Of a DNA stretch of 64,000 bases, positions 3,625 through 55,479 are shown piece after piece. The stretch lies in the NCBI GenBank assembly GCA_041649295.1, contig JBAZNI010000001.1:288115-352114 (forward strand), in the 5' to 3' direction. Each line of letters begins with the position of its first letter. Within the stretch, counting starts at the first letter, position 1. This DNA is from Candidatus Pacearchaeota archaeon (lineage in GTDB: Archaea; Nanobdellota; Nanobdellia; Pacearchaeales; GW2011-AR1). The notes beneath the pieces are model-generated. The model did not search any database and was not told where the DNA came from. It saw nothing but the letters and a program-made list of their open reading frames with translations. The translations under genes were made by a program, and so were the position numbers.

Positions 3625-4467
3625 TTGATGGAAAAAACTATTAATAACAAAACTGATAATAAGAAAAAAGCTGGAAGACCTAAGGGAGCTAAAAGTAAAC
3701 TTAATCTTCCAATAAGAAATATAGCCGACGCCATAGACTGGGCTCGGAAAGTGGATAATGAAGCCAATGGAAATGAATTTCATCCAGAGGATTTAGTAGA
3801 GTATATAGGTATAAACAAGGGATTTGTTAGCCCTGCATTATCAGTATTGCAAAAATTTGGGTTTATTGAAAAGGGCAGTTTTGGGTGGAAAATTAGTGAT
3901 TTAGGGATGAGGGTTATAAGCAATGAAAGAGAAGCAGTCAGAGAGGCTTTAGAAAGGGTTGATTTATATAGAGATTTGTTAAGAAGTTTTGGAGATAAGA
4001 ATGTAACCAAAACTATCATACTTAACTATCTAAAAACTAAATATAAAAAGGGGGAGAATACAGAGATAATTGCAGAAAAATATGCCGAAGCAGTTAGTTA
4101 TCTAAACTCCCTTGAAAAAGGAATAGGAAAACCGGCTACTAAAGAAGTAAATAAAATAATTGATAATAAGATTATAACTTTATTAAAATTAAAATATACT
4201 TTTTATCCAGATAAAAATTCAAAAAAAGAAATTTTAAATGAATTAATAACTGAATTTAATGATGATGAAGATGTTACTATAAAATCTTTAATATCTCAAA
4301 TTAAAGAGAATGAAGATAATGAAAGCATATTAAAAGTGCTTATAGACACCTTAATGAATAGTTTTTCTCAAAAATATCCAATTCTTAATATTGAAAAGAA
4401 AGTTAAAAAAGAGCAAAAGAAAGAAATAACTGAAAAATCACAAGAACATCATAGTCAATCTGATTGA
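3625..4467 (+). CDS. Hypothetical protein, basic N-terminus (KKKAGRPKGAKSK), possible winged-helix DNA binder
   Basis: Long ORF with coding-like composition; no family recognised. Confidence 0.5.
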   Translation: MMEKTINNKTDNKKKAGRPKGAKSKLNLPIRNIADAIDWARKVDNEANGNEFHPEDLVEYIGINKGFVSPALSVLQKFGFIEKGSFGWKISDLGMRVISNEREAVREALERVDLYRDLLRSFGDKNVTKTIILNYLKTKYKKGENTEIIAEKYAEAVSYLNSLEKGIGKPATKEVNKIIDNKIITLLKLKYTFYPDKNSKKEILNELITEFNDDEDVTIKSLISQIKENEDNESILKVLIDTLMNSFSQKYPILNIEKKVKKEQKKEITEKSQEHHSQSD

Positions 4468-4928: not shown

Positions 4929-5165
4929 ATGGTTCAAAGCATTATTAATATTAATGAGCAAGAAGATAGGGTGCTGAATATAGTCAAAGCTAAATTCGGG
5001 CTTAAAAATAAAAGCGAGGCTGTTGCTTTAATAACCAAAATATATGAAGAAAGTTTCCTAGAGCCTGAATTAAGGCCAGAGTACCTAGAGAAATTAGAGA
5101 AAATAAGAAAGGGAAAATATATTAAGTTTAGTTCTATTAGTGAGTTAAGAAAGATAACAAGTTAA
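4929..5165 (+). CDS. Small antitoxin-like protein (RHH/DUF2683-like)
   Basis: 78 aa, 17 nt upstream of a RelE-like ORF; the pair is arranged like a type II TA module. Confidence 0.5.
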   Translation: MVQSIININEQEDRVLNIVKAKFGLKNKSEAVALITKIYEESFLEPELRPEYLEKLEKIRKGKYIKFSSISELRKITS

Positions 5166-5181
5166 TATTAAAGAGGTTGAA

Positions 5182-5448
5182 ATGTACAGCTATAAAATAA
5201 GTGAGGAGCTTAAAGAGATTATGCTAAAGCTCTCAAAAAAAGATAAACCTCTTTATGAGCAATTATTAAAGAAAATTGAAGAGGTAATTAATTATTATGA
5301 TATTGAACATTATAAAAATCTAAGATATAATATGAAAAACTCAAAAAGAGTCCATATCGGGCATTTTGTTCTTGTTTTTCAGTTCGATAAACAAACCAAT
5401 GAAATAAGTTTTGATGATTTCGACCACCACGATAAGATTTATGGATGA
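5182..5448 (+). CDS. RelE/ParE-family toxin
   Basis: 88 aa. The KRVHIGHFVLVFQFD..ISFDDFDHHDKIY C-terminus is typical of archaeal RelE-like toxins. Confidence 0.6.
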   Translation: MYSYKISEELKEIMLKLSKKDKPLYEQLLKKIEEVINYYDIEHYKNLRYNMKNSKRVHIGHFVLVFQFDKQTNEISFDDFDHHDKIYG

Positions 5449-5459
5449 GTTAGGAATTT

Positions 5460-5507
5460 GGGTTAATAATCCCTATCTTTCCCTTGCTTAAATTGAGTTG
5501 AGCGGGG
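5460..5507. repeat. Mosaic repeat X module (GGGTTAATAATCCCTATCTTTCCCTTGCTTAAATTGAGTTGAGCGGGG)
   Basis: Aligns with 4805-4850, 63872-63920 and 416-448. Confidence 0.7.
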
Positions 5508-5859: not shown

Positions 5860-6996
5860 ATGGCAAAAATAAGCCCTGTATCAATAAAATATATGATACA
5901 TGCAAGGTTTGAAGCTGTTGGCTCAGTAGAAAAGCCAGATGTAATTGGAGCTTTATTTGGGCAGACAGAAGGGTTACTTGGAAGAGAACTTGAAATAAGA
6001 GATCTTCAAAAAGAAGGTAAAATCGGCAGGATTGAAGTAGATTTAGAGCCTGAAAATGGAAAAACTATTGGAAAAATTCAAATTCCCACTGCTATTGACC
6101 AGTCAGAAACTAGTTTAATTGCCGCTGCAATTGAAACAATTGACAGAATTGGACCTACAGAAGCTAAAATAACTGTAGAAAAAATTGAAGATGTCCGTGG
6201 AAACAAGAGAGATTACATTTTAGAAAGGGCAAAAAAATTATTAGAAGGAATTCAGGGCAACCAAACTTCTAAAGAAATTTCAAGTAATCTTAAAATTGCT
6301 ACAAGAACATCAAGAATTCAGGAATATGGAGATGAAAAGCTCCCATGTGGAAACATTGAAGTGCCTGAAATAATTGTTGTTGAAGGCAGAGCTGATGTTG
6401 TTAATTTGCTTGAAAACAGGATTGAAAATGTAATTGGAATGAACGGAACAAAACTTCCAAGAGCAGTTATCGAGCTTAGCAAGAAAAAAGAAATAACTCT
6501 TTTTGTTGATGGCGATAGGGGAGGAAAGCTTATAGCAAAGAATGTAATTGAAAATGCAGAAATTGACTATATTGCATTTGCTCCTGACGGCAAAGAAGTT
6601 GAAGAACTCTCTGGAAAAGAGATCCTTGCAAGTTTAAGAAAGAAAATTCCTGCAAAGGAATTTTCTTCCTCTAAGGAGGAAAAGCAGGATTATAACCAAA
6701 AATATTCCAATGAAAATTCAAAGATAGATATTGAAAAATTAAGGAAAATACTTCCAGAAATTGAAGGAAGTGAAAAAGCATATTTATTTGACAAAAACTT
6801 GAACATAATAAAAAAAGTTTCAAAGTCAGGGATTCAGAATGCACTTTCAAAAGAGGGAAATGTTGAAATTATTGCAATTGACGGGAAAGTGACACTTCAG
6901 ATAATTGAAATTGCTGAGCAGGCAGGAGTTAAGTATCTTGCAGCAAAAACATTCGCAACTTCTAGCTCAGACAAAATTAAGTTTATTGGGTTTTAG
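5860..6996 (+). CDS. dnaG: Archaeal DnaG primase-like protein (Toprim)
   Basis: The N-terminus IKYMIHARFEAVGSVEKPDVIGALFGQTEGLLG is characteristic of archaeal DnaG. Toprim motifs VVEGRADV and FVDGDRGG are present, and AGGAGG lies upstream. Confidence 0.9.
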   Translation: MAKISPVSIKYMIHARFEAVGSVEKPDVIGALFGQTEGLLGRELEIRDLQKEGKIGRIEVDLEPENGKTIGKIQIPTAIDQSETSLIAAAIETIDRIGPTEAKITVEKIEDVRGNKRDYILERAKKLLEGIQGNQTSKEISSNLKIATRTSRIQEYGDEKLPCGNIEVPEIIVVEGRADVVNLLENRIENVIGMNGTKLPRAVIELSKKKEITLFVDGDRGGKLIAKNVIENAEIDYIAFAPDGKEVEELSGKEILASLRKKIPAKEFSSSKEEKQDYNQKYSNENSKIDIEKLRKILPEIEGSEKAYLFDKNLNIIKKVSKSGIQNALSKEGNVEIIAIDGKVTLQIIEIAEQAGVKYLAAKTFATSSSDKIKFIGF

Positions 6997-25908: not shown

Positions 25909-28900
25909 TTAACTGCCCTCTTCCAGCTTCAAACTCACAATCTTGCTAATACCGCTGTTCATGCTGATTCCATAAATAACATTAGCCCCGCTAATAATGC
26001 TGTCGTTGTGGCTTATTACAATATACTGCCCGGATTTCATGTATTTGTGAAGAAGATTAGCTAAAAGTTCTGAGTTTCTTTTATCAAGTGCTGCATCAAT
26101 TTCATCAAGAATATAGAAACAGTAAGGATGATATTCCTGAATTGCAAAAATCAATGAAAGTGCAATAAGTGTTTTTTCTCCGCCTGATAAAGAATTAATG
26201 TCAAAGTATTTTCCTTTTGCAATTCTTATTATAATATCTATTCCCCCTTCAAAAATATCTTCAGGATTCTGGATTTCAAGGAATGCTTTTCCTTTTGTGC
26301 TTAACTGGCTGAAATTCCTCGTGAATAGCTCATTAATTGCAGTAAATGTTTTCATAAAAGTCTTTTTCTTTTTAACATCAATTTCATGTATGATTTTAAG
26401 TATCTCTTCTCTTTCATCTTCCAGCTGTTTGACTTTTTCAGACACCTTCTCATATTCTTCTTTTACAAATTCGTATGTTTCCAAAGCTCTCATGTTTACA
26501 CTGCCTATTCTCATTAAGTCCTGCTCTGATTTCTGAAGTTTTTCTTTAAGAAACTGAATACTTCCAGAAATAAATTCAATTCCTGAAAATTCCCTTAACT
26601 CAAATTCGAAAGATTCTTTTTCAGCACCGACTTTTGCAATTTCAACTTTAAGATTATTTATAACTTCTGTAAATCTCGAAAGAGTGTTTTGCTGGTTTAC
26701 AAGCAACAGATTTTTCTGATTTATTTTTTCCTGTATTTCTGTTCTTTCCTTAAACAGCTTTTCAAATTTTTCAATCATATCATCCAAAGCAGACTGCCTG
26801 TCTCCTAATTTATGCTCGTTTAGTTTCAGATTAGAGTTTAAATTTGACAAATCTTTTTTTATCTCTATTTTGTCTTTGTCGATTCCCTTTATAACAATTC
26901 TTATCCTTTCAATTTCCTGCTCTTTGAACAAAATAGTCCTGTCAATATTTTCATCTGTTCTTGATGATATTTCCTGCAGTTCAAACAGAAGTGTTTTTGA
27001 TTTCTCCTCTATCTTTGAAATATCTTGAAGATTCTTTGCAAGTGATTCCTGTCTTGTTTTTAAGTTTTGGATTTCTATTTTAAAATTCTTTTCTTTAGCC
27101 ATAAGTTTTTTCATAGATTCTCTTTTTTCATTAATAGATTCTATTTTAACAAGCTCAACTTCTCTTTCTGACAATTCGTTTTTTAGGGAATCATCTTTGC
27201 TACCAAGATTTTTTATATTAATTTCAAAATCTTCAATTTCTTTTTTAACTGAATTTAACAGCTCCAAACTTTTTTTGATTTTGTCTTCTGTCGATTTTAA
27301 AACATGAGTTACATGCTCGCTTGTTAATTTGCTCTGGCATAGAGGGCAGATATCAGAAGAAGGTATTTTTGATTTTAGTTTCTGATTTCTTTCTATATCT
27401 GCTTCAATTACAGAAAAAGATTTCTCAGCATTTTTTCTTTCTTCATATAATTTTTCAAGTTGTTTTTTATTTTCTCCAATATCTTTATTTAGCTCTTTTA
27501 TTTTTGCTGTGCATTCTTCTGTTGTCTGGAAAGTAAGTTCTTCTGCCAAAGATTTTATCTGGTTAAAAAGATATCTTGATTCTGTTTCAGCAGAAGTTAA
27601 TTCTCTTTCCTTATCTCTTATCCTGTCTTTAATGAGATTAAATTCTGTCTGCAGAGAATAAACTTTTTCTTTTTTAGATTCAATTTCATCAAGTTCCTGC
27701 TTTTTAGCTTTGATTTCATTCTGTCTTTTAGAAAGTAATGGAGATTCTTTTTTTAATCTATTAAGTTCTTCTTCAGATTCTTTTAAGCTGTGCTCTAATT
27801 CATTTCTTCTAACTTCATTTTCAGCTAGTTTTTTGTCAAAGTTATCTATTCTTGTTCTGTCTTCTGTAACCCTTATATTCAGCATTGTAATTTCATCATT
27901 CAAAGACTCTCTTTCAAAACCTGAAGATTTCTGAACATGCTCATTTATTTCATCTGCTCTTTGTGAAAGAGATTTAATTTCCTGCTCCAATCTTGATATT
28001 TCTGATTTTACTTTTTCCTTGAATTTGGTGTTTTTATCAACTTCTTCTTTTATTTTTTCAATTTCTTTATCTTTTTCATCAAGGTTCTTTTTTATTATTG
28101 ATACTTTGCACTGCTTGACACTTTTTTCAAGTTCTTTAAACCTCAAAGCCTGCTTCCTTTCTTCTTCAAGATTTTTCATATATGCTGTTCTCTCTCTTAA
28201 AACTGCAGAAACTTCTTTTAGTTTTTGGTTTGTTTTTTCAATTTCATGGAGAGATTTCTGTTTTCTCATTTCGTAAATTGAAATTCCTGCAACTTCTTCA
28301 ATAATCTCTCTTCTTTCAATAGGGTGCATTTTAACAAGATGGGCAATTTCTCCCTGAAGAACAATATTAAATCCATTTGGGTCAATTCCTGCATGAGATA
28401 AAAGTTCTAAAATTTCCTGGCGTGTTTTTGTCTCGCCATTTAGCTTGTAAATGCTCGTTCCTTTTCTCCTTACAATTCTTTTAATAGAAACGTCTTTTGA
28501 ATCGATGTTAAACATTTTGTCAGAATTATCAAAAACAATTTCAACACTTGCCTCTTTAGACGGTTTTCTTTCTTTTGTTCCCTGAAAAATAAGATGTGAT
28601 GATTTTTCAGCTCTCAAACTTTTGCTTGACAAACGCCCTAAAACAAAACACAAAGCATCGCTTATATTTGAATTATGCGCGAATATATTATTAGCTACAA
28701 AATTATGATGTTCTTCAACGCACAAATCATAAACCCATTCCCCCCCAGCTATTTCTTGAATATCTATAAGTTCATCCCAAAAGATGTCTGATTGAATTAG
28801 CAGATTTAACCTATTTATATTTTCAGAATTTCCTATAAATAATTGATTAGTCAATAAAGAAAGTCCATTTCTTGAAGGAGTGCATTGATTATAATAATAT

Positions 28901-30381
28901 GAATCTAAACTTGGAAAATCCTGTTTATTTTTCTTAACTGAGATGCCTAACTCGTTTGTGATTATTTTTACTAAATCATTTGCTTCGATTAAATCAACAT
29001 TAGTATTAGATTTTTTATGCAAGTGGGATAATATCCTGTCTTTTTTTCTTTTATGGATTAATTGAATATATTGATTAAATAATGCTAAATTTAAAACTCC
29101 TGAGATAGTTATTGATTTATATTTGCCTTTAAAGTCTTTATATCCTTTTATAATGTCTTTAGTATTAAAAAGAATGCCTAACCTTAGCAAGCAAGTTTCA
29201 ATACTATGACAAAGCAGTTCACTCTTTGTTGTTATTTCAATTACTGGAGATTTTTTTGAGACATATCCATCTCCACAATATAGTCCATTTAATAAGTTTG
29301 ATATTTCTTCCTTAGAAGAGTGTTTTAAAATAATGTTTGAAATCTTTTTATTTTCTGTTTTTGAAGCCATCCCTAATTCCCTTAAAATCTTTTTTAATGG
29401 CTCTGAAAAAATTATTACATCCCAGCAATTTTGTTTATACTCCCGGACTAATGGTTCTTTATGGAAAAGTTTTCTTACAAGATAAACATAATCTTCTACA
29501 ATTTCTCTATCTCCATTTGTAAACCAGATATGGCTTGAATCTCCAAGCCTTCCTTCTGCCAAAAGATATCCAAAAAATCTGGCAAAGTCTGGAGAATTTT
29601 TAAATTCAAATCTTGTATCCTTGCCATTAGCACAAATAGTATTTATATTATTGACTATTTCTATATCTGAAAAACCTGCATACCTAAATATTTTTATAAG
29701 GTTGCAGAAGTGAATTGATTGTTTATCAAGCATCCCTTTAATAATATAATAATTAACTCCTATTTTCTGCGCTAATTCCCTCCAGCTATTTTTTTCTTTT
29801 AATGATTTTAAAATATTAACATATTCTTCTTTATAAGGAATATAAAAATTATCTTCAAGACTAAATTTATCAAGAAGTTCTATAAAATATTTATTTTCAG
29901 GCTCAAAGTTTATTTTTCTCGTAACAGCTATTCTAACCCCTTTTTTTAATTCTTCTGCTTTTGCAGGAACAATTTTATTATTTTTTAATATAAAGAAAGG
30001 ATGATATTTAGTAGATGTAATTTCTCTGCCCGAACGAGTTTTTATTTTTAGCAGTTTTTCTGGAGAAGTTCTCTTTACAAATGCTTTAATGGGTTTTTTT
30101 ACAACTTTTAAAGTATTAAAATCAAGGCATAATACTTCTGTGCCATCGCCTTGAATTAAAAATCCATCTTCAGTTTTTATAGCATTGATTAAACGAGAAT
30201 TAACAATATTTCCAATCTTTTCTATTGTTCCGTCTGATAGCTGGACTAGTGAATTTTCAGTCAGGCACTTACCACTTCCATTTGGGCCAATAATGACATT
30301 AATTCCTGTATCAAATGGGAGCTGTGCTTTTCCTGCAAAACTCTTAAACCCATTTATTGTCAGCTCTTTTACATAACCCAT
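25909..30381 (-). CDS. SMC-headed coiled-coil ATPase with central CxxC hook, interrupted by an intein
   Basis: Head motifs are INGFKSF, GPNGSGK[intein]SNISDALCFVLG, QGEIAHLV..ERREIIEEVAGIS, LSGGEKTLIALSLIFAIQ and ILDEIDAALD. CPLC lies at 27337-27348, the extein midpoint. Confidence 0.85.
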   Translation of the reverse strand: MGYVKELTINGFKSFAGKAQLPFDTGINVIIGPNGSGKCLTENSLVQLSDGTIEKIGNIVNSRLINAIKTEDGFLIQGDGTEVLCLDFNTLKVVKKPIKAFVKRTSPEKLLKIKTRSGREITSTKYHPFFILKNNKIVPAKAEELKKGVRIAVTRKINFEPENKYFIELLDKFSLEDNFYIPYKEEYVNILKSLKEKNSWRELAQKIGVNYYIIKGMLDKQSIHFCNLIKIFRYAGFSDIEIVNNINTICANGKDTRFEFKNSPDFARFFGYLLAEGRLGDSSHIWFTNGDREIVEDYVYLVRKLFHKEPLVREYKQNCWDVIIFSEPLKKILRELGMASKTENKKISNIILKHSSKEEISNLLNGLYCGDGYVSKKSPVIEITTKSELLCHSIETCLLRLGILFNTKDIIKGYKDFKGKYKSITISGVLNLALFNQYIQLIHKRKKDRILSHLHKKSNTNVDLIEANDLVKIITNELGISVKKNKQDFPSLDSYYYNQCTPSRNGLSLLTNQLFIGNSENINRLNLLIQSDIFWDELIDIQEIAGGEWVYDLCVEEHHNFVANNIFAHNSNISDALCFVLGRLSSKSLRAEKSSHLIFQGTKERKPSKEASVEIVFDNSDKMFNIDSKDVSIKRIVRRKGTSIYKLNGETKTRQEILELLSHAGIDPNGFNIVLQGEIAHLVKMHPIERREIIEEVAGISIYEMRKQKSLHEIEKTNQKLKEVSAVLRERTAYMKNLEEERKQALRFKELEKSVKQCKVSIIKKNLDEKDKEIEKIKEEVDKNTKFKEKVKSEISRLEQEIKSLSQRADEINEHVQKSSGFERESLNDEITMLNIRVTEDRTRIDNFDKKLAENEVRRNELEHSLKESEEELNRLKKESPLLSKRQNEIKAKKQELDEIESKKEKVYSLQTEFNLIKDRIRDKERELTSAETESRYLFNQIKSLAEELTFQTTEECTAKIKELNKDIGENKKQLEKLYEERKNAEKSFSVIEADIERNQKLKSKIPSSDICPLCQSKLTSEHVTHVLKSTEDKIKKSLELLNSVKKEIEDFEINIKNLGSKDDSLKNELSEREVELVKIESINEKRESMKKLMAKEKNFKIEIQNLKTRQESLAKNLQDISKIEEKSKTLLFELQEISSRTDENIDRTILFKEQEIERIRIVIKGIDKDKIEIKKDLSNLNSNLKLNEHKLGDRQSALDDMIEKFEKLFKERTEIQEKINQKNLLLVNQQNTLSRFTEVINNLKVEIAKVGAEKESFEFELREFSGIEFISGSIQFLKEKLQKSEQDLMRIGSVNMRALETYEFVKEEYEKVSEKVKQLEDEREEILKIIHEIDVKKKKTFMKTFTAINELFTRNFSQLSTKGKAFLEIQNPEDIFEGGIDIIIRIAKGKYFDINSLSGGEKTLIALSLIFAIQEYHPYCFYILDEIDAALDKRNSELLANLLHKYMKSGQYIVISHNDSIISGANVIYGISMNSGISKIVSLKLEEGS
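28672..30267 (-). mobile_element. 532-aa intein with LAGLIDADG homing-endonuclease domain in the Walker A loop
   Basis: Starts at Cys39 (GSGK|CLTENSLV) and ends ..NIFAHN|S. The LAGLIDADG-like blocks are FFGYLLAEGRL and LLNGLYCGDGYV. Confidence 0.85.
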
Positions 30382-37574: not shown

Positions 37575-37714
37575 CGCCGACACTGGGAATCGAACCCAGG
37601 AACCCCGAAGGGCCGAGATGTTTGTGTTATATCCTCTTAAAGGAAATGTCGTAAGAAGAACCATAGGTTCTTTTTACTTAGCAATCTCGTGCTCTACCAC
37701 TGAGCGATGTCGGC
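37575..37714 (-). tRNA. tRNA-Ser (GCU) with 59-nt intron at 37/38
   Basis: Acceptor GCCGACA/TGTCGGC, D arm GCTC-AGTGGTA-GAGC, anticodon stem CGAGA/TCTCG with loop UUGCUA|A. It has a long variable arm (CCC-TTCG-GGG) and T arm CTGGG-TTCGATT-CCCAG. Confidence 0.85.
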
Positions 37715-37728
37715 TTGTTGGTTATGTT

Positions 37729-37809
37729 CGACATCGCGAAGGAACTGCCTTCAAAATGCAAATTTTGAATGGGACAGAAATTTCCTGAATTTCTGTAAGC
37801 GATGTCGGC
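37729..37809. ncRNA. Structured element: 9-bp closing stem around two perfect hairpins, ending in a 12-nt copy of the tRNA-Ser 5' end
   Basis: CGACATCGC (37729-37737) pairs with GCGATGTCG (37799-37807). The hairpins are TTCAAAAT-GCAA-ATTTTGAA (37750-37769) and ACAGAAATT-TCCTG-AATTTCTGT (37774-37796). The strand is undetermined. Confidence 0.4.
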
Positions 37810-37940
37810 ATATAAAAATAACAGAAATTAACAGAATTTAAAGGTTTGTGTTTTTGTTTTTGTAAGTGGGTTAAAAACACTATAATATTTTTTTTACCTA
37901 TGGCTAATTTTATATACAAATTTTAAGGCTATTTTAATTA

Positions 37941-38130: not shown

Positions 38131-38268
38131 GCGCTGCTAGTTTATCGGTAGAATACATCCTTGCCAATGTGGAAGAACCAAGGTTTTCCTAACACTACCT
38201 CTCCTTATGAAGGAAAAATGAGAGAAAGCAAAAAGGATGTGAGCCGGGTTCAATTCCCGGGTGGCGCA
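38131..38268 (+). tRNA. tRNA-Gly (GCC) with about 66-nt intron at 37/38
   Basis: Acceptor GCGCTGC/GTGGCGC (two G-U pairs), anticodon stem CATCC/GGATG with loop UUGCCA|A, and T arm CCGGG-TTCAATT-CCCGG. Confidence 0.8.
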
Positions 38269-38296
38269 TATAATCATTAGATTAAGTGAAATCTTA

Positions 38297-38349
38297 GCGA
38301 CGCACGGCACTAAGAATTTTTCCTGAATTCTTTCAGCCGGGTGGCGCAT
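38297..38349. other. Long imperfect hairpin ending in a 13-nt copy of the tRNA-Gly 3' end
   Basis: GCGACGCACGGC (38297-38308) pairs with GCCGGGTGGCGC (38336-47) at 10 of 12 positions. The inner hairpin is AAGAATT-TTTCCTG-AATTCTT (38312-32). CCGGGTGGCGCAT at 38337-49 is identical to 38257-69. Confidence 0.6.
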
Positions 38350-50210: not shown

Positions 50211-51272
50211 ATGCAATATAAAGATATTGATGTAAGAAAAGAGATTCTTAGAAAGTTTTTAAAAAATAATCCTAATGCGACTTATAAGCAAATAAAAAGG
50301 GAAATTCATACCAAAGTTGAAAAAGTGTACACTGGCGGGATGAAAGATGCATTTAAAGATGCAGGTATTAAAAATCCAAGGAATTTTGAGAGAAAGAATA
50401 GAGAGGAAAGAGAAAAAATTATAATTAATTATATAAAGAAACATCCCGGAGTTGGGGCACATACAATTGCAAAGGATACAAAAATAAATCCATCTAGTAT
50501 TTTTAATAGTATAAGAGAGGCTTATGTGTTTGCAGGGATTACATACCCTCGGATAAGAATTAATAAATCAAAAACAGAAAAAAAGAAACAAATAATGTTT
50601 TTGGTTAAAAATAACCCTTTAATAACTGCTAGAGAAATAAAAGAATTAAGCGGAATAAATTTATATAAAGTATTTAAAAACTTTAATGAAGTTTACAAGG
50701 AGTTAGAAATAAAAGATATTTGCAATAAAAATAAAGAAAGAATTAAAAAGCAAAACCAAGTAATTGAATTTATTAAAAATAATCCTAGAGCAACACAAAG
50801 AGAGATAAATCGCACTTGTAAGACACATGTTCAAGAACTATTTAATGGTGGGATATTTGAAGCTTATAAAAATGCACAGATTCTTTTTCCATATGAGAGA
50901 TTAAAAATCTATGGTATTGGAATTAAATCTGTAAGGGAGGATTCAAAAAGATTTGAAGATGAAATTGCCTTAAAATTATCTGGCTATGGCAATGTTAATA
51001 GACTGGTAAGAATAAAGAAGGGTGTTGCAGATATAGTCTTCGAAAGAAAAGATAAAAAAGCAATTGTAGAGGTAAAAAATTATTTAAAAAAAGAGGTTTC
51101 TTTTTCACAGATTAACCAGTTAAACAGTTATTTAAATGATTTTAACTGCAATCTTGGGTTGCTTATATGCAATGTTAAGCCAAAGAAGGATAAGTTTATA
51201 ATTGGTAAAAATAGAATATTTGTGTTAGATAAAGACGAACTTGACAGAGTGCCTTATTTAATGGAACTGTAG
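50211..51272 (+). CDS. Four tandem HTH-like modules fused to a C-terminal PD-(D/E)XK (Mrr-cat-like) nuclease domain
   Basis: The modules begin LKNNPNATYKQIKREI.., IKKHPGVGAHTIAKDT.., VKNNPLITAREIKELS.. and IKNNPRATQREINRTC... The C-terminus is FEDEIALKL..GVADIVFERKDKKAIVEVKNY. Confidence 0.5.
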   Translation: MQYKDIDVRKEILRKFLKNNPNATYKQIKREIHTKVEKVYTGGMKDAFKDAGIKNPRNFERKNREEREKIIINYIKKHPGVGAHTIAKDTKINPSSIFNSIREAYVFAGITYPRIRINKSKTEKKKQIMFLVKNNPLITAREIKELSGINLYKVFKNFNEVYKELEIKDICNKNKERIKKQNQVIEFIKNNPRATQREINRTCKTHVQELFNGGIFEAYKNAQILFPYERLKIYGIGIKSVREDSKRFEDEIALKLSGYGNVNRLVRIKKGVADIVFERKDKKAIVEVKNYLKKEVSFSQINQLNSYLNDFNCNLGLLICNVKPKKDKFIIGKNRIFVLDKDELDRVPYLMEL

Positions 51273-51334
51273 TTTAATGGTTAGAATTTTGGTCTCCAGA
51301 ACCAACGATGGGGGTTCGATTCCCTCCAGTTCCA
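51263..51334 (+). tRNA. tRNA-Trp (CCA), no intron
   Basis: Acceptor GGAACTG/CAGTTCC, anticodon stem TTGGT/ACCAA with loop CUCCAGA, and T arm GGGGG-TTCGATT-CCCTC. The 5' 10 nt overlap the preceding CDS end. Confidence 0.85.
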
Positions 51335-51342
51335 TGTTCTAA

Positions 51343-51367
51343 AGGGGTTCGATTCCTCCTAGGCCCA
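51343..51367 (+). pseudogene. Orphan tRNA fragment (T arm plus 3' acceptor strand)
   Basis: AGGGG-TTCGATT-CCTCC-TAGGCCC-A lies 8 nt after tRNA-Trp. Its acceptor sequence differs from every tRNA in the window. Confidence 0.6.
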
Positions 51368-51524
51368 TTTAATCTTTATTTACTTAACCCCTACAGATAA
51401 AATTAAAAAGAGGGGAGATTATAGTTTTATATGAAAAATCATATTTTCAAAGTTCTAATCTGGAATCGTAGTGAGCGTTACAGATAATTTAAATATAAAC
51501 TTCTAATCTATTTAAGAGGTGCTT

Positions 51525-52940: not shown

Positions 52941-52992
52941 AAAAACTTGTGTAAACAAATGTATCCTAAAGCATCCAAATAAAAAGAGCACT

Positions 52993-53994
52993 TTAAGATA
53001 GCTCGTTTGCAACGAATGGTTTCGAGCCCAATTTAATTATGTTAATTTTAACAAAAGAGTCTTTATTAGTCTTTTCTCTTTCTAAAGCTTCTTTATATCC
53101 TAATGAAATTTTTGTTAGATTAGTTATACCCTCCTCAGTTAATACCTCGGGATCAATATATCTAAATTTTTTCTTCAATTCTATTCCTTCTTTAGACTCT
53201 TCTATTTTAAATCCATTTTTTAACATATCTAATTGCTCTAAAATTTCTTGGTTTTTGCTGTTTTCTAATAAGTTTATAATAAATTGGTCTGTTTTCATTA
53301 AGTCCTCTTTTGAGATTAATTTAGAATCTATAGCCTTCCTTAAAATTTGAGCTAAAATATAATATCTGGCTCTTGCATCATTTCCTGCCCAATGCTCTTT
53401 TTGTAATCTTAAATATTCATTTGCAAAGGATTCAGCAGATTGTTTAGTCTCAAATACCATTTGTCCATTAATATTCTTTAAGTTAGTTACACATAATTTA
53501 ACTAAGTCGTCCTTTCCTAAATCCTTAAGTTCTCTAATTGTATAATCAAATCTATCTACACACAAACTCGGAGCATGTTTTTCTAAAAGAGAAAATGATT
53601 CTACATTAGCAACATCTTTGTAATTAAATCCATATTTTTTAAGTATATTAGGAACATCAGAATTTTCAATTATATTTAGATGATTATTATCTTGGTAATC
53701 CTCTTTTGTTGGGTCTCCTAAAACCCAATCAACTACATGAGAAAAAGCAGTGTGAGAAATATCATGTAAAAGTCCTGCTATTTGTTCTTCTATGTCCGCA
53801 TCTAATTTTCTTAATAATATCATCACTCCAATTGAATGTTCAAATCTTGAAAAAACAATTCTGTGATAGTAGTCTTGAGGTAATCCTTGTTGAGAAATAC
53901 CCTTTAATCTTTGTAATGTTTTTGAATTAATTAAATCTATTAACACAGGTTCATTAATTTCTTCTTCACCATAAACTTTATCTTTTATTAGCAT
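52993..53994 (-). CDS. HD-domain phosphohydrolase
   Basis: SRFEHSIGV ... GLLHDISHTAFSH. Confidence 0.7.
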   Translation of the reverse strand: MLIKDKVYGEEEINEPVLIDLINSKTLQRLKGISQQGLPQDYYHRIVFSRFEHSIGVMILLRKLDADIEEQIAGLLHDISHTAFSHVVDWVLGDPTKEDYQDNNHLNIIENSDVPNILKKYGFNYKDVANVESFSLLEKHAPSLCVDRFDYTIRELKDLGKDDLVKLCVTNLKNINGQMVFETKQSAESFANEYLRLQKEHWAGNDARARYYILAQILRKAIDSKLISKEDLMKTDQFIINLLENSKNQEILEQLDMLKNGFKIEESKEGIELKKKFRYIDPEVLTEEGITNLTKISLGYKEALEREKTNKDSFVKINIIKLGSKPFVANELS

Positions 53995-54036
53995 AACTAT
54001 TAGCTCTTTTCATATTATAAAAACTTAATTATAATA

Positions 54037-54077
54037 TGGTCCCACGAGGAGTTGAACCTCGGAATACTCGGTGTAAA
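54037..54077 (-). pseudogene. Orphan tRNA 3' half (anticodon loop to discriminator); split-tRNA half or integration scar
   Basis: On the minus strand it reads TTTACAC-CGAGT-ATTC-CGAGG-TTCAACT-CCTCG-TGGGACC-A. No matching 5' half is present in the window. Confidence 0.55.
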
Positions 54078-54156
54078 CACTAGGATATGTTTTTGGGTAA
54101 GAAAATTAAACACATTTACTTTTTGAGTACAAATTGATTTTAGAATCACAAAAAAT

Positions 54157-54483
54157 TTAATCCTGAATTGTTCTATCGTGTGGTCTAGGGAATCTTTCTT
54201 TTCTGCGTCTTAAAACTTCATATCCTAATATTCCTTCACTAACCTCTCCAAAATTAAGTAATAAATTAACTCCTTTTAAACTTTCTGGCCATACCCCCTC
54301 TCCATAAGAGCCCACTAATCTTCCGTTATATTTATTATTTCCGCTTCCTCTTTCTTGTACAAGAGTAAAGTATCCTACTGATTCATGTGAGGGATTATTT
54401 CCTAAAAGATTATGGACAATTCTTACTAAATCTCCTTCTCTAACATCTTCTTTAAATCCTGATACTGGCTTTAATTTTCCCAT
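54157..54483 (-). CDS. Hypothetical protein (108 aa)
   Basis: The ATG at 54483 (MGKLKPV) is preferred. The ORF-track start at 54591 is a TTG. Confidence 0.4.
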   Translation of the reverse strand: MGKLKPVSGFKEDVREGDLVRIVHNLLGNNPSHESVGYFTLVQERGSGNNKYNGRLVGSYGEGVWPESLKGVNLLLNFGEVSEGILGYEVLRRRKERFPRPHDRTIQD

Positions 54484-54677
54484 TTTAATACTACATTTTT
54501 CCAGTTTTTTAAATCTTTCTATTGTTGTAATTATATAGTAATTAATTACTCTAAATTTCATATGATAAAATGTGTTTAAAACTTTAGTCAAAAAACATAT
54601 CTACTTTGTGTAAACAAGTATAACATTATTGTTCTTTTTTCATTAAACAGTTTTTGTCATACGCGTTTTGACACCTT

Positions 54678-55319
54678 TTACAACTCTCCTTTCCATTCTT
54701 TTAGGAACCTTTCAACATACTCTTTTACATATTGGTATCTTTCTTTGGCAATTTTTTTAGCTTCTTTGGTATTAAAACTTTCAGGGGTTATTCTAAAAAT
54801 CTTCCTATAAAAACCATGAATTGTTGATGTATAAAAATTAACAGAACTATCATTTAAGGGTATATTTGGATTAAATAGCGGTCTTTGTATTTCTCCACTT
54901 GTGCAAAACATTCTTGCAATGGTTATTGCACCTAATGCATCAAGCCTATCTGCATCTTGAAGAATTTCAGCTTCAATAGTTTCAGCCTTCATATTTTTAC
55001 TATGACGATGAACTTTAATAGCATAAATAACTAATTTTATTTTGTCATCTGGAAAACCCATTTCTTTTAATATTTCTTCAGCCATTTTAGCGCCATGTCC
55101 TGCATGACACTCAATTTCTTTGTTATGTTCTTTTAATCTAGCTACATCATGAAGCAAACATGCGGTTTTTAACACATCTAAATCAACTTTCTTATTTTTT
55201 GATAATTTTAATGCTAAATTATAAACTCTTTCAGTATGGTCAAAGGCGTGACTTCCACCTTTAATAAAATAAGGCTGTATCTTTTCTTTTAATTTTATAT
55301 AAAAATTTTCATCAATCAT
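54678..55319 (-). CDS. HD-domain phosphohydrolase
   Basis: HAFDHTERV ... LLHDVAR ... HRH. Confidence 0.7.
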   Translation of the reverse strand: MIDENFYIKLKEKIQPYFIKGGSHAFDHTERVYNLALKLSKNKKVDLDVLKTACLLHDVARLKEHNKEIECHAGHGAKMAEEILKEMGFPDDKIKLVIYAIKVHRHSKNMKAETIEAEILQDADRLDALGAITIARMFCTSGEIQRPLFNPNIPLNDSSVNFYTSTIHGFYRKIFRITPESFNTKEAKKIAKERYQYVKEYVERFLKEWKGEL

Positions 55320-55351
55320 GTAATCAACATATACATTTCAATTTATAAACA

Positions 55352-55392
55352 TGAGCCCACGCGGGATCGAACCGCGGACCGGTCGGTGTAAA
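55352..55392 (-). pseudogene. Orphan tRNA 3' half (anticodon loop to discriminator); split-tRNA half or integration scar
   Basis: On the minus strand it reads TTTACAC-CGACC-GGTC-CGCGG-TTCGATC-CCGCG-TGGGCTC-A. No matching 5' half is present in the window. Confidence 0.55.
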
Positions 55393-55479
55393 CAAGTATA
55401 ACATCATTGCTATTTATCACTCTATCCCATATCATATTAATCGGATAAACTTTAATAAACATAAGGAGCAATTAGTTTT

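Follow-up and report, generated by a model that had tools for sequence, protein, structure and literature searches.

We analysed a 64,000-nt stretch of DNA from a Candidatus Pacearchaeota archaeon (assembly GCA_041649295.1, contig JBAZNI010000001.1, positions 288,115 to 352,114), referred to below as the window, in which two isolated tRNA 3′ portions lie on the minus strand just upstream of the HD phosphohydrolase genes HD2 and HD1. These tRNA 'halves' are probably junction relics of site-specific recombination in the anticodon loop of tRNA-Val, bounding three cassettes that contain HD2, an open reading frame (ORF) designated ORF134, and HD1. A first-pass annotation had listed attachment-site remnants of anticodon-loop recombinases among its explanations for the halves, and it is this explanation that is favoured by the layout around tRNA-Val in a related genome (L005), by homology breaks at a repeated core motif, and by the precise absence of 537 bp from another contig.

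Both 41-nt portions were confirmed from the letters at the two sites. Half 2 (minus strand, 55392-55352) reads TTTACAC-CGACC-GGTC-CGCGG-TTCGATC-CCGCG-TGGGCTC-A, and half 1 (minus strand, 54077-54037) reads TTTACAC-CGAGT-ATTC-CGAGG-TTCAACT-CCTCG-TGGGACC-A; each comprises the anticodon loop, 3′ anticodon stem, 4-nt variable loop, T arm (CGCGG/CCGCG in half 2, CGAGG/CCTCG in half 1), 3′ acceptor strand (TGGGCTC and TGGGACC, respectively) and discriminator A. The loop TTTACAC gives the anticodon UAC, so that both pieces correspond to positions 32-73 of tRNA-Val(UAC), and the discriminator A is in keeping with Val identity. They are displaced 3′ portions of this tRNA. Half 1 shares 82.6% identity over 46 nt with the intact tRNA-Val of L005 and 97.7% with positions 1-44 of the related contig L090, and half 2 is 87.5% identical to an L090 unit. 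Several metagenome contigs link nearly identical 3′ portions to complete genes. A half-2-like 3′ part sits within full tRNA-Val genes in contigs from X3 and X6, with a 5′ half beginning GGGCCCATAGTCTAGTGGCAAAAC, and in the X6 and X4 contigs similar to half 1 the upstream sequence consists of tRNA-Val 5′ halves, the X6 acceptor strand GGTCTCA pairing fully with TGGGACC. Other tRNA-Val 5′ acceptor strands likewise fit orphan halves, namely GGGCCCA with TGGGCCC of L090 and GGGCGTA with TACGCCC of L096.

An intact tRNA-Val(UAC) gene, missed by ARAGORN, was recovered in the window by its Rfam tRNA match (51.7 bits) on the minus strand at 38043-37941. It consists of GGCCCTGTAGTCTAGTGGCAAAACGACTCGTTTACA / 32-nt intron / CCGAGTAGTCAGGAGTTCGATTCTCTTCAGGGCCA, with the canonical intron at 37/38, and folds as a cloverleaf once spliced; its 3′ anticodon stem matches the CGAGT of half 1. 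Given this intact intron-bearing gene, the Val(UAC) isoacceptor is already served and the halves are redundant. The intron cuts the core sequence, as TTTACA / intron / C, and it is the intron-less tRNA-Val of L005 that carries an insert, a contrast drawn from two genomes only.

The core motif GTGTAAACA occurs on the plus strand at 52949, 54071, 54608 and 55386, that is, in four co-oriented copies within 2.5 kb; the first-pass annotation had the copies and their orientation right, with slips of 1-4 nt in two of the positions (52953 for 52949 and 54609 for 54608). A fifth copy, on the minus strand at 26493, is unrelated to the array. The motif is expected 0.36 times per window, and none of 100 shuffles gave five matches. 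A longer direct repeat of 30 nt (90% identity) links 54608-54637 with 55386-55415, and a 19-mer taken from it is found in the window only at these two sites, even with three mismatches tolerated. Read along the minus strand, the array runs leader D / core / half 2 - HD2 - leader C / core / ORF134 element / core / half 1 - HD1 - leader A / core / flank, so that its four cores delimit cassettes of 778 bp (HD2), 537 bp (ORF134) and 1122 bp (HD1). Leader D and core D (55386-55415, with the core TGTTTACAC at 55394-55386) form the left end of the array and are recognized by the 30-nt repeat and the core match. Half 2 follows, and then the HD2 gene (54678-55319), the cargo of the cassette at 55385-54608. 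Leader C and core C, recognized likewise, occupy 54608-54637, with the core at 54616-54608; the AAAGTAG next to this core on its downstream side is what is left of the 3′ strand of the anticodon stem. The ORF134 cassette (54080-54607; ORF at 54561-54157) is marked by inverted repeats, and its ORF belongs to no known family. Core B (54071-54079) leads into half 1 and the HD1 gene (52993-53994), the cargo of the cassette at 54070-52949. Leader A and core A (52949-52990, with the core at 52957-52949) close the array on the right; beyond core A the sequence continues AAGTTTT... with no tRNA part, and 8 nt separate the core from the stop codon of a convergent MFS gene. All of these features are on the minus strand of the window, which has a G+C content of ~31% and also encodes TYW3.

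Comparison with related contigs placed homology breakpoints at the cores. Window positions 54079-52949 align with 113-1245 of L090 at 89.6% identity; the 1135-nt alignment opens with the first base of one TGTTTACAC and closes with the last base of the following copy, and the flanks differ on both sides; core B is thus the left breakpoint with L090, as it is with L096, and core A the right breakpoint with L090. Where the window is compared with a contig related to it at 93%, homology spans exactly the interval between neighbouring cores, and cassette turnover has taken place within a 93%-related pair of contigs. A landfill contig from X6 joins 54070 to 54608 and skips 537 bp (54607-54071), with seven letters that fit either side. 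The ORF134 element and one copy of the core, and nothing else, are lost in the join; in the resulting leader C-core-half 1, ACTTG and CGAGT pair in the manner of an anticodon stem. Other metagenome contigs show further combinations: leader A-core followed by a type-1 half in X2, HD1 followed by the leader-C module in X3, and a type-1 half, 20 nt and then leader C in X10. The 75-nt module at 54565-54639 is present twice in one X3 contig, one copy being 100% identical, and the HD1 cassette was found in five different neighbourhoods. In contigs that resemble the halves, the similarity stops either at the edge of the core or at the 3′ end of the tRNA, and several of these contigs run upstream into genuine tRNA-Val 5′ halves. 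Together with the invariant core, the L090 breakpoints and the X6 gap place the crossover within the anticodon loop.

Units of the form leader - TTTACAC - Val 3′ half are carried by related Pacearchaeota contigs. In L005 (GCA_964467035.1) an intact tRNA-Val(TAC) at 5084-5156 is followed by an insert of ~750 bp with ORF117 and then by a leader-core-half unit (5912-5952), which reads AAAAAAATAACTTTTATGACCTATTAG-TTTACAC-CAAGT-AGTC-CCAGG-TTCGATT-CTTGG-TAGGGCT-A and has an HD2 orthologue 48 nt further on. Judged from its arrangement, this is the classical order of regenerated tRNA, insert and displaced fragment, with putative attL- and attR-like ends. Set against the tRNA-Val genes of L005 and of contigs from X3, X4 and X6, the displaced fragments show homology to the 3′ part of this target and share its orientation. 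L005 has an intact, regenerated tRNA at the opposite end of its insert, and no tRNA was found at those array ends that are visible in the window, in L091 and in L094. L094 carries seven intact co-oriented units and a degenerate eighth site in 11 kb, in a locus without an intact tRNA; they precede His_Phos_1, YcaO/nitroreductase, HD1, NYN, DUF202 and small anonymous ORFs; its cassettes hold toxin-antitoxin-type genes (Zeta toxin, NYN, DUF2283, MazE, PIN). L090 packs three units into 1.5 kb; one of its cassettes (1-113), 113 bp long, is 'empty' and comprises a half and a leader only. Cassettes of the array type range from 115 bp to 3 kb.

Some further repeats were noted in these relatives. Upstream of the L005 tRNA-Val (4960-5440) lie two repeats that each open with its first ~20 nt, and downstream of it are tandem repeats of ~95 nt that each close with its last 17 nt (GATTCTTGGTGGGGCCA) and are interrupted by an N run. 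Two Val halves of L094 (6470-6565 and 9885-9980) have an insertion of ~45 nt after the anticodon stem with an 11-bp perfect hairpin (AAAAGCATTTT/AAAATGCTTTT), which could be a miniature insertion or a non-canonical intron. In L091 the last ~40 nt of a HerA-like ATPase gene occur three times (3648-3687, 3768-3808 and 5470-5505), twice just after TTTACAC cores.

Each full unit consists of a leader, the 7-nt anticodon-loop core TTTACAC, a tRNA-Val 3′ part, a promoter and a gene. Across 13 orphan halves TTTACAC is invariant (13/13) and the remaining columns average 83% identity. In the T stem 93.8% of cells are paired and 12 double changes are seen, a level reached by none of 500 shuffles; compensatory pairing of this kind is to be expected of halves that were each once part of a functional tRNA. 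The leaders form a diverged, recognizable family of about 30-80 nt, summarized as GGTCCAAAC…GCTATC…AAAA-GTAAC-TTTWKG…ATTWG, which is visible only in multiple alignment and in subfamilies; global pairwise identity of leaders against flanks is uninformative in such AT-rich DNA (0.59 vs 0.54-0.57). Leader and core persist where the half has decayed or is missing, as at window sites A and C, L094_6 and L091_c. A derivation of the leader from the intron of the resident tRNA-Val was considered and set aside, as the two have only a 9-mer (ACAAGTATA) in common, on opposite strands and compatible with chance. A reading of the leader as a candidate dif/XerA site was likewise set aside.

The simplest mechanism for these observations would begin with a segment bearing leader-core-half as an attP-like site, which would recombine with the anticodon loop of tRNA-Val or with an earlier junction. 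The 7-nt loop would serve as the overlap region, and its stem-like imperfect inverted flanks as the binding arms of a tyrosine-type recombinase. The exchange would regenerate the tRNA with the incoming 3′ half and push the older half downstream; repeated events (tandem accretion), together with homologous exchange between the repeated modules, would then build and shuffle the array. Circular intermediates may have been involved, and both the identity of the presumed recombinase and this order of events are likewise proposals. Exchange within the loop, between imperfect inverted arms, is established for the SSV1 integrase, whose overlap region is the anticodon loop, and has been argued for tRNA targets at large; tandem integration, loss of the integrase after integration and exchange of modules between tandem elements are all documented in archaea (PMC8371274); a displaced tRNA fragment is also known to mark the end of an island (PMC4383910). 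The arrays resemble archaeal tRNA attachment (att) sites of the SSV1 and pNOB8 types, and the logic of Islander, in that a block of identity extends from the anticodon loop to the tRNA 3′ end, the 7-nt loop is the likely overlap, the fragment is oriented as the tRNA is, and the L005 insert is flanked by an intact tRNA and a displaced half. They differ from such sites in that the window array has no integrase nearby and no intact tRNA at its head, inserts measure 0.1-3 kb as opposed to 5-40 kb, a leader of 30-80 nt is conserved at every array junction, and the host belongs to the Pacearchaeota within the DPANN archaea, the review cited above (PMC8371274) naming neither DPANN nor Nanoarchaeota.

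Several observations weigh against an origin of the halves as recombination relics. No integrase, transposase or recombinase was called in the 41 kb of the window that was checked (22.8-64 kb), and tblastn with the recombinase of L091 found nothing in the window. That protein (272 aa) is the sole recombinase adjacent to an array and scores as a housekeeping XerA equivalog; with none linked in the 41 kb checked, the enzyme would have to act in trans or have been lost. The window array is headed by a leader in place of a tRNA 5′ half, and the intact tRNA-Val lies 15 kb downstream of the array end, not upstream. The cassettes (115 bp to 3 kb) are very small beside the usual integrated elements, and the terminal inverted repeats of the ORF134 element are the mark of a transposon and not of an att-bounded cassette. 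In L094 the subtype of a leader tracks the subtype of the adjacent half, a covariation that duplication of whole leader-core-half modules explains better than strictly serial integration. Halves have also been swapped at their 3′ end: the half that precedes HD1 is of type 1 in the window and of type 2 in L090. Finally, scans of IMG/VR with half, leader and long-leader patterns found no such units, the matches being intact phage tRNA-Val genes or, in one case, a chance match inside a methyltransferase gene.

The points concerning the recombinase, the array head, the covariation, the 3′ swaps and ORF134 led us to retain as the main rival a dedicated and still active cassette platform, similar to integrons or to Xer-dependent dif modules, in which leader-core-half would form a structured recombination site and a host recombinase (e.g. 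of the XerA/pNOB8 family) would act in trans on a store of accessory genes. We regard this as unlikely overall. In its favour, co-oriented sites bound small, mostly single-gene cassettes, some of them 'empty' (L090 1-113; X10), leader and core are kept where the half is decayed or missing, the HD1 cassette recurs in its five neighbourhoods, and the turnover between the 93%-related contigs, the toxin-antitoxin-type genes of L094 and the XerA-family recombinase beside the L091 array would all suit such a platform. Against it, no recombinase is linked to the arrays in the window or L094, no IntI-type integrase or attC-type site was found, the cassettes have promoters of their own and some genes are reversed, and homologous recombination between repeated modules could give equal shuffling. 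The likeness to integron arrays and to Acinetobacter pdif modules extends to co-oriented sites, small and mostly single-gene cassettes of which some are empty, a recombinase outside the cassettes, and the presence of one cassette in different contexts. It does not extend to the machinery, as the array lacks IntI, attC hairpins with R/L boxes and the alternating orientation of XerC/XerD sites, the L091 recombinase falls below integron-integrase cut-offs, and the sites derive from the anticodon arm and 3′ half of tRNA-Val; the cassettes, moreover, have their own promoters.

A further alternative takes the repeated TGTTTACAC as the target-site duplication of elements resembling miniature inverted-repeat transposable elements (MITEs) or insertion sequences, with terminal inverted repeats and a preference for this sequence, for which the halves would be a mere landing pad. 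In the ORF134 element, imperfect inverted repeats of 34 nt, with 76% complementarity, lie at 54601-54568 and 54117-54084, 4-6 nt inside the 9-bp direct repeats, and the ORF between them has no Pfam or NCBIfam match. Short forms that join the two repeat arms are abundant (X5; groundwater metagenomes), summed contig depth reaching 1366 at 54534-54619 vs single digits for the neighbouring coding sequence. The inverted repeats and the abundant MITE-like short forms suggest that the ORF134 element may have come by transposition, and the precise absence of 537 bp in X6 and the small hairpin insertions inside halves L094_3 and L094_5 would fit as well. The HD1 and HD2 cassettes, however, have no terminal inverted repeats and are bounded by a tRNA half at one end and by a leader at the opposite end, the L005 insert sits between an intact tRNA and its displaced half, and even in ORF134 the inverted repeats begin 4-6 nt away from the direct repeats. 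Transposition may well account for the ORF134 cassette, and is improbable as an explanation for the array.

The HD genes themselves appear at the positions first described for them (52993-53994 and 54678-55319), their ATGs 42 nt (HD1) and 32 nt (HD2) past the halves, and Pfam agrees with their assignment as phosphohydrolases. HD2 encodes a 213-aa HD-domain phosphohydrolase (PF01966, E = 7e-16) with 2190 homologues, many named Pacearchaeota/Nanoarchaeota, and HD1 a 333-aa HD-superfamily phosphohydrolase (PF01966); among the HD homologues, the closest bear Pacearchaeota, Nanoarchaeota or Woesearchaeota names. The two are not paralogues and are unrelated apart from the HD motif. HD1 is longer than its orthologues (321-325 aa) by ~10 C-terminal residues (52993-53025), which arise where the sequence departs from L090, just before leader A.

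The first-pass annotation had also proposed that the halves are tRNA-like leader elements tied to the HD genes, and had suggested that the association be checked in relatives. Beyond the spacing of 32-42 nt in the window, such a cis-acting RNA-processing or regulatory element specific to HD phosphohydrolase genes could draw on the HD1 orthologues of at least 77% identity, all of which have a Val half upstream (intact in L090, L096 and L094, decayed in L091) and leader and core downstream, as well as on the half that precedes the HD2 orthologue of L005. The link does not hold more widely. HD1 orthologues of 62% identity or less have no half; the HD2 orthologues of L003, L007 and L008 (70-79% identity) abut the upstream gene without one, and that of L009 has a full tRNA-Phe at the upstream position and no Val half. 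HD2 is preceded by a half in two of the seven lineages examined. A search of genome contigs with the HD2 alignment gave, among the matches listed, distant bacterial YpgQ-like proteins and two nearby archaeal loci, neither locus with units. The units of L094 precede at least six unrelated genes, the two HD genes share only their motif, and, besides the T hairpin, the halves fold no better than shuffled sequence. The HD link is incidental: the HD genes are cargo or neighbours, functionally uncoupled from the tRNA pieces, and HD1 travels with its half and leader as one cassette, within a narrow clade only. An HD-specific leader is thus very unlikely.

Equally hard to sustain is the suggestion that the halves are genuine 3′ halves of split (trans-spliced) tRNA-Val genes with 5′ halves elsewhere in the genome, as in Nanoarchaeum equitans. 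In its favour, the organism shares a phylum with N. equitans (Nanoarchaeota as GTDB defines it), and the split tRNAs of N. equitans and Caldivirga maquilingensis likewise have a separate 3′ portion preceded by a leader. The leader in the array contains a promoter-like A/T box, T-arm pairing is kept by compensatory changes, and no tRNA-Val was detected in 15 of the 54 complete genomes of Pacearchaeales (bioRxiv 10.64898/2026.05.13.725050). Both halves, however, begin at position 32 and include the whole anticodon loop (32-38), which is not the splice position, and an intact tRNA-Val(UAC) lies 16 kb away. In a by-hand comparison with the resident pre-tRNA-Val, the leader (...ATACTTG) offered no TAAA for positions 32-35 and hence no bulge-helix-bulge pairing with the Val 5′ exon: the leader end …GTTATACTTG has no 4-nt segment to pair there, and neither the 4-bp helix nor the bulges can form, whereas the resident intron does carry the pairing segments (TTTA/TAAA, GTAT/ATAC). 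Known split tRNAs, moreover, have a GC-rich leader complementary to the 5′-half trailer, which the array pieces lack.

Searches of the 64-kb window for the missing partners agree with this. The complement of the leader matched only the leaders themselves, and a G-U-tolerant scan with a TTTACA loop returned no dedicated 5′ half, only the 5′ exon of the resident tRNA-Val; the check for complementary trailers and 5′ halves that the first-pass annotation had called for thus found, within the window, nothing besides that exon. As regards the 5′ acceptor strands that it had found missing, GGTCCCA is present only as the complement of half 1, and GAGCCCA occurs at chance frequency. Folding of leader plus half gave nothing beyond the T hairpin and was not better than shuffled sequence (z-scores 0.22 and -1.33), and Rfam at a permissive threshold returned for the region only a weak mascRNA-like match (19.9 bits vs a gathering score of 42.5), judged to be chance. 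The acceptor strands of the seven intact L094 units are incompatible with one another, and many different 5′ halves would be required to complete them; decay is also seen in some copies (L094_6 and, in L091, the one upstream of HD1).

Another related case is the tRNA disruption by a mobile element described in Caldiarchaeum subterraneum (PMC3293823), where inserted DNA parts a tRNA fragment from an intact intron-bearing copy, and where fragment and gene can end up far apart in the genome. In that archaeon the fragment comes from the 5′ side of the tRNA and the 1.8-kb insert has a recombinase gene, whereas the window fragments are 3′ pieces, are arrayed and have no recombinase linked to them.

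A number of other features of the window were noted. Two more tRNAs with long introns, also missed by ARAGORN, lie at 37575-37714 (minus strand) and 38131-38268 (plus strand), by eye tRNA-Ser(GCU) and tRNA-Gly(GCC); in all, ARAGORN finds two tRNAs in the window and Rfam five, three of them with long introns. The 5′ end of the tRNA-Ser (GCCGACATCGC) recurs ~85 nt upstream of it (37715-37812), with two perfect hairpins in the spacer, and the 3′ end of the tRNA-Gly (CCGGGTGGCGCA) recurs 65 nt downstream of it (38269-38349); a similar TTTCCTGAATT motif precedes each of these copies. A 25-nt copy of a T arm and 3′ acceptor end (GGGGTTCGATTCCTCCTAGGCCCA; 51344-51368, plus strand) lies 9 nt past tRNA-Trp (51262-51335), with 80% identity to its 3′ end. 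At 25909-30381 on the minus strand, precomputed Pfam matches identify a 1490-aa SMC protein with an intein that carries a LAGLIDADG homing-endonuclease domain.

Relics of integration in the form of tRNA fragments are well known, including in archaea. What is unusual here is the DPANN host, the very small and integrase-free cassettes (some of them empty), the long conserved leader and the density of sites. 'Orphan tRNA halves' in a relative of Nanoarchaeum are a tempting case for split tRNA genes, a misreading that is corrected here. The anticodon loop of tRNA-Val(UAC) bounds very small cassettes in at least six Pacearchaeota genomes or contigs, which goes beyond the picture of one large island per tRNA. 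The arrays also offer a concrete handle on a possible connection with the tRNA-Val that appears to be 'missing' from many complete Pacearchaeales genomes, and they bear on the long-standing idea that mobile elements drive the gain of tRNA introns and the splitting of tRNA genes. If the cassettes are actively exchanged, they would provide a path for gene flow in the DPANN archaea, about whose mobile elements little is known. In its fullest form, which we put forward as a speculative and rather doubtful extension, the Pacearchaeota would possess a cassette-exchange platform on the tRNA-Val(UAC) anticodon arm, at which a recombinase acting in trans would insert, excise and shuffle small gene cassettes at TTTACAC and in so doing repeatedly remodel tRNA-Val; each cassette would start with a replacement tRNA-Val 3′ half and finish with a conserved leader. 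Cassette traffic would then sometimes fragment the tRNA-Val gene or force an intron into it, which would explain the failure to detect tRNA-Val in 15 of the 54 complete Pacearchaeales genomes, and the platform would show mobile DNA still at work in the disruption of tRNA genes.

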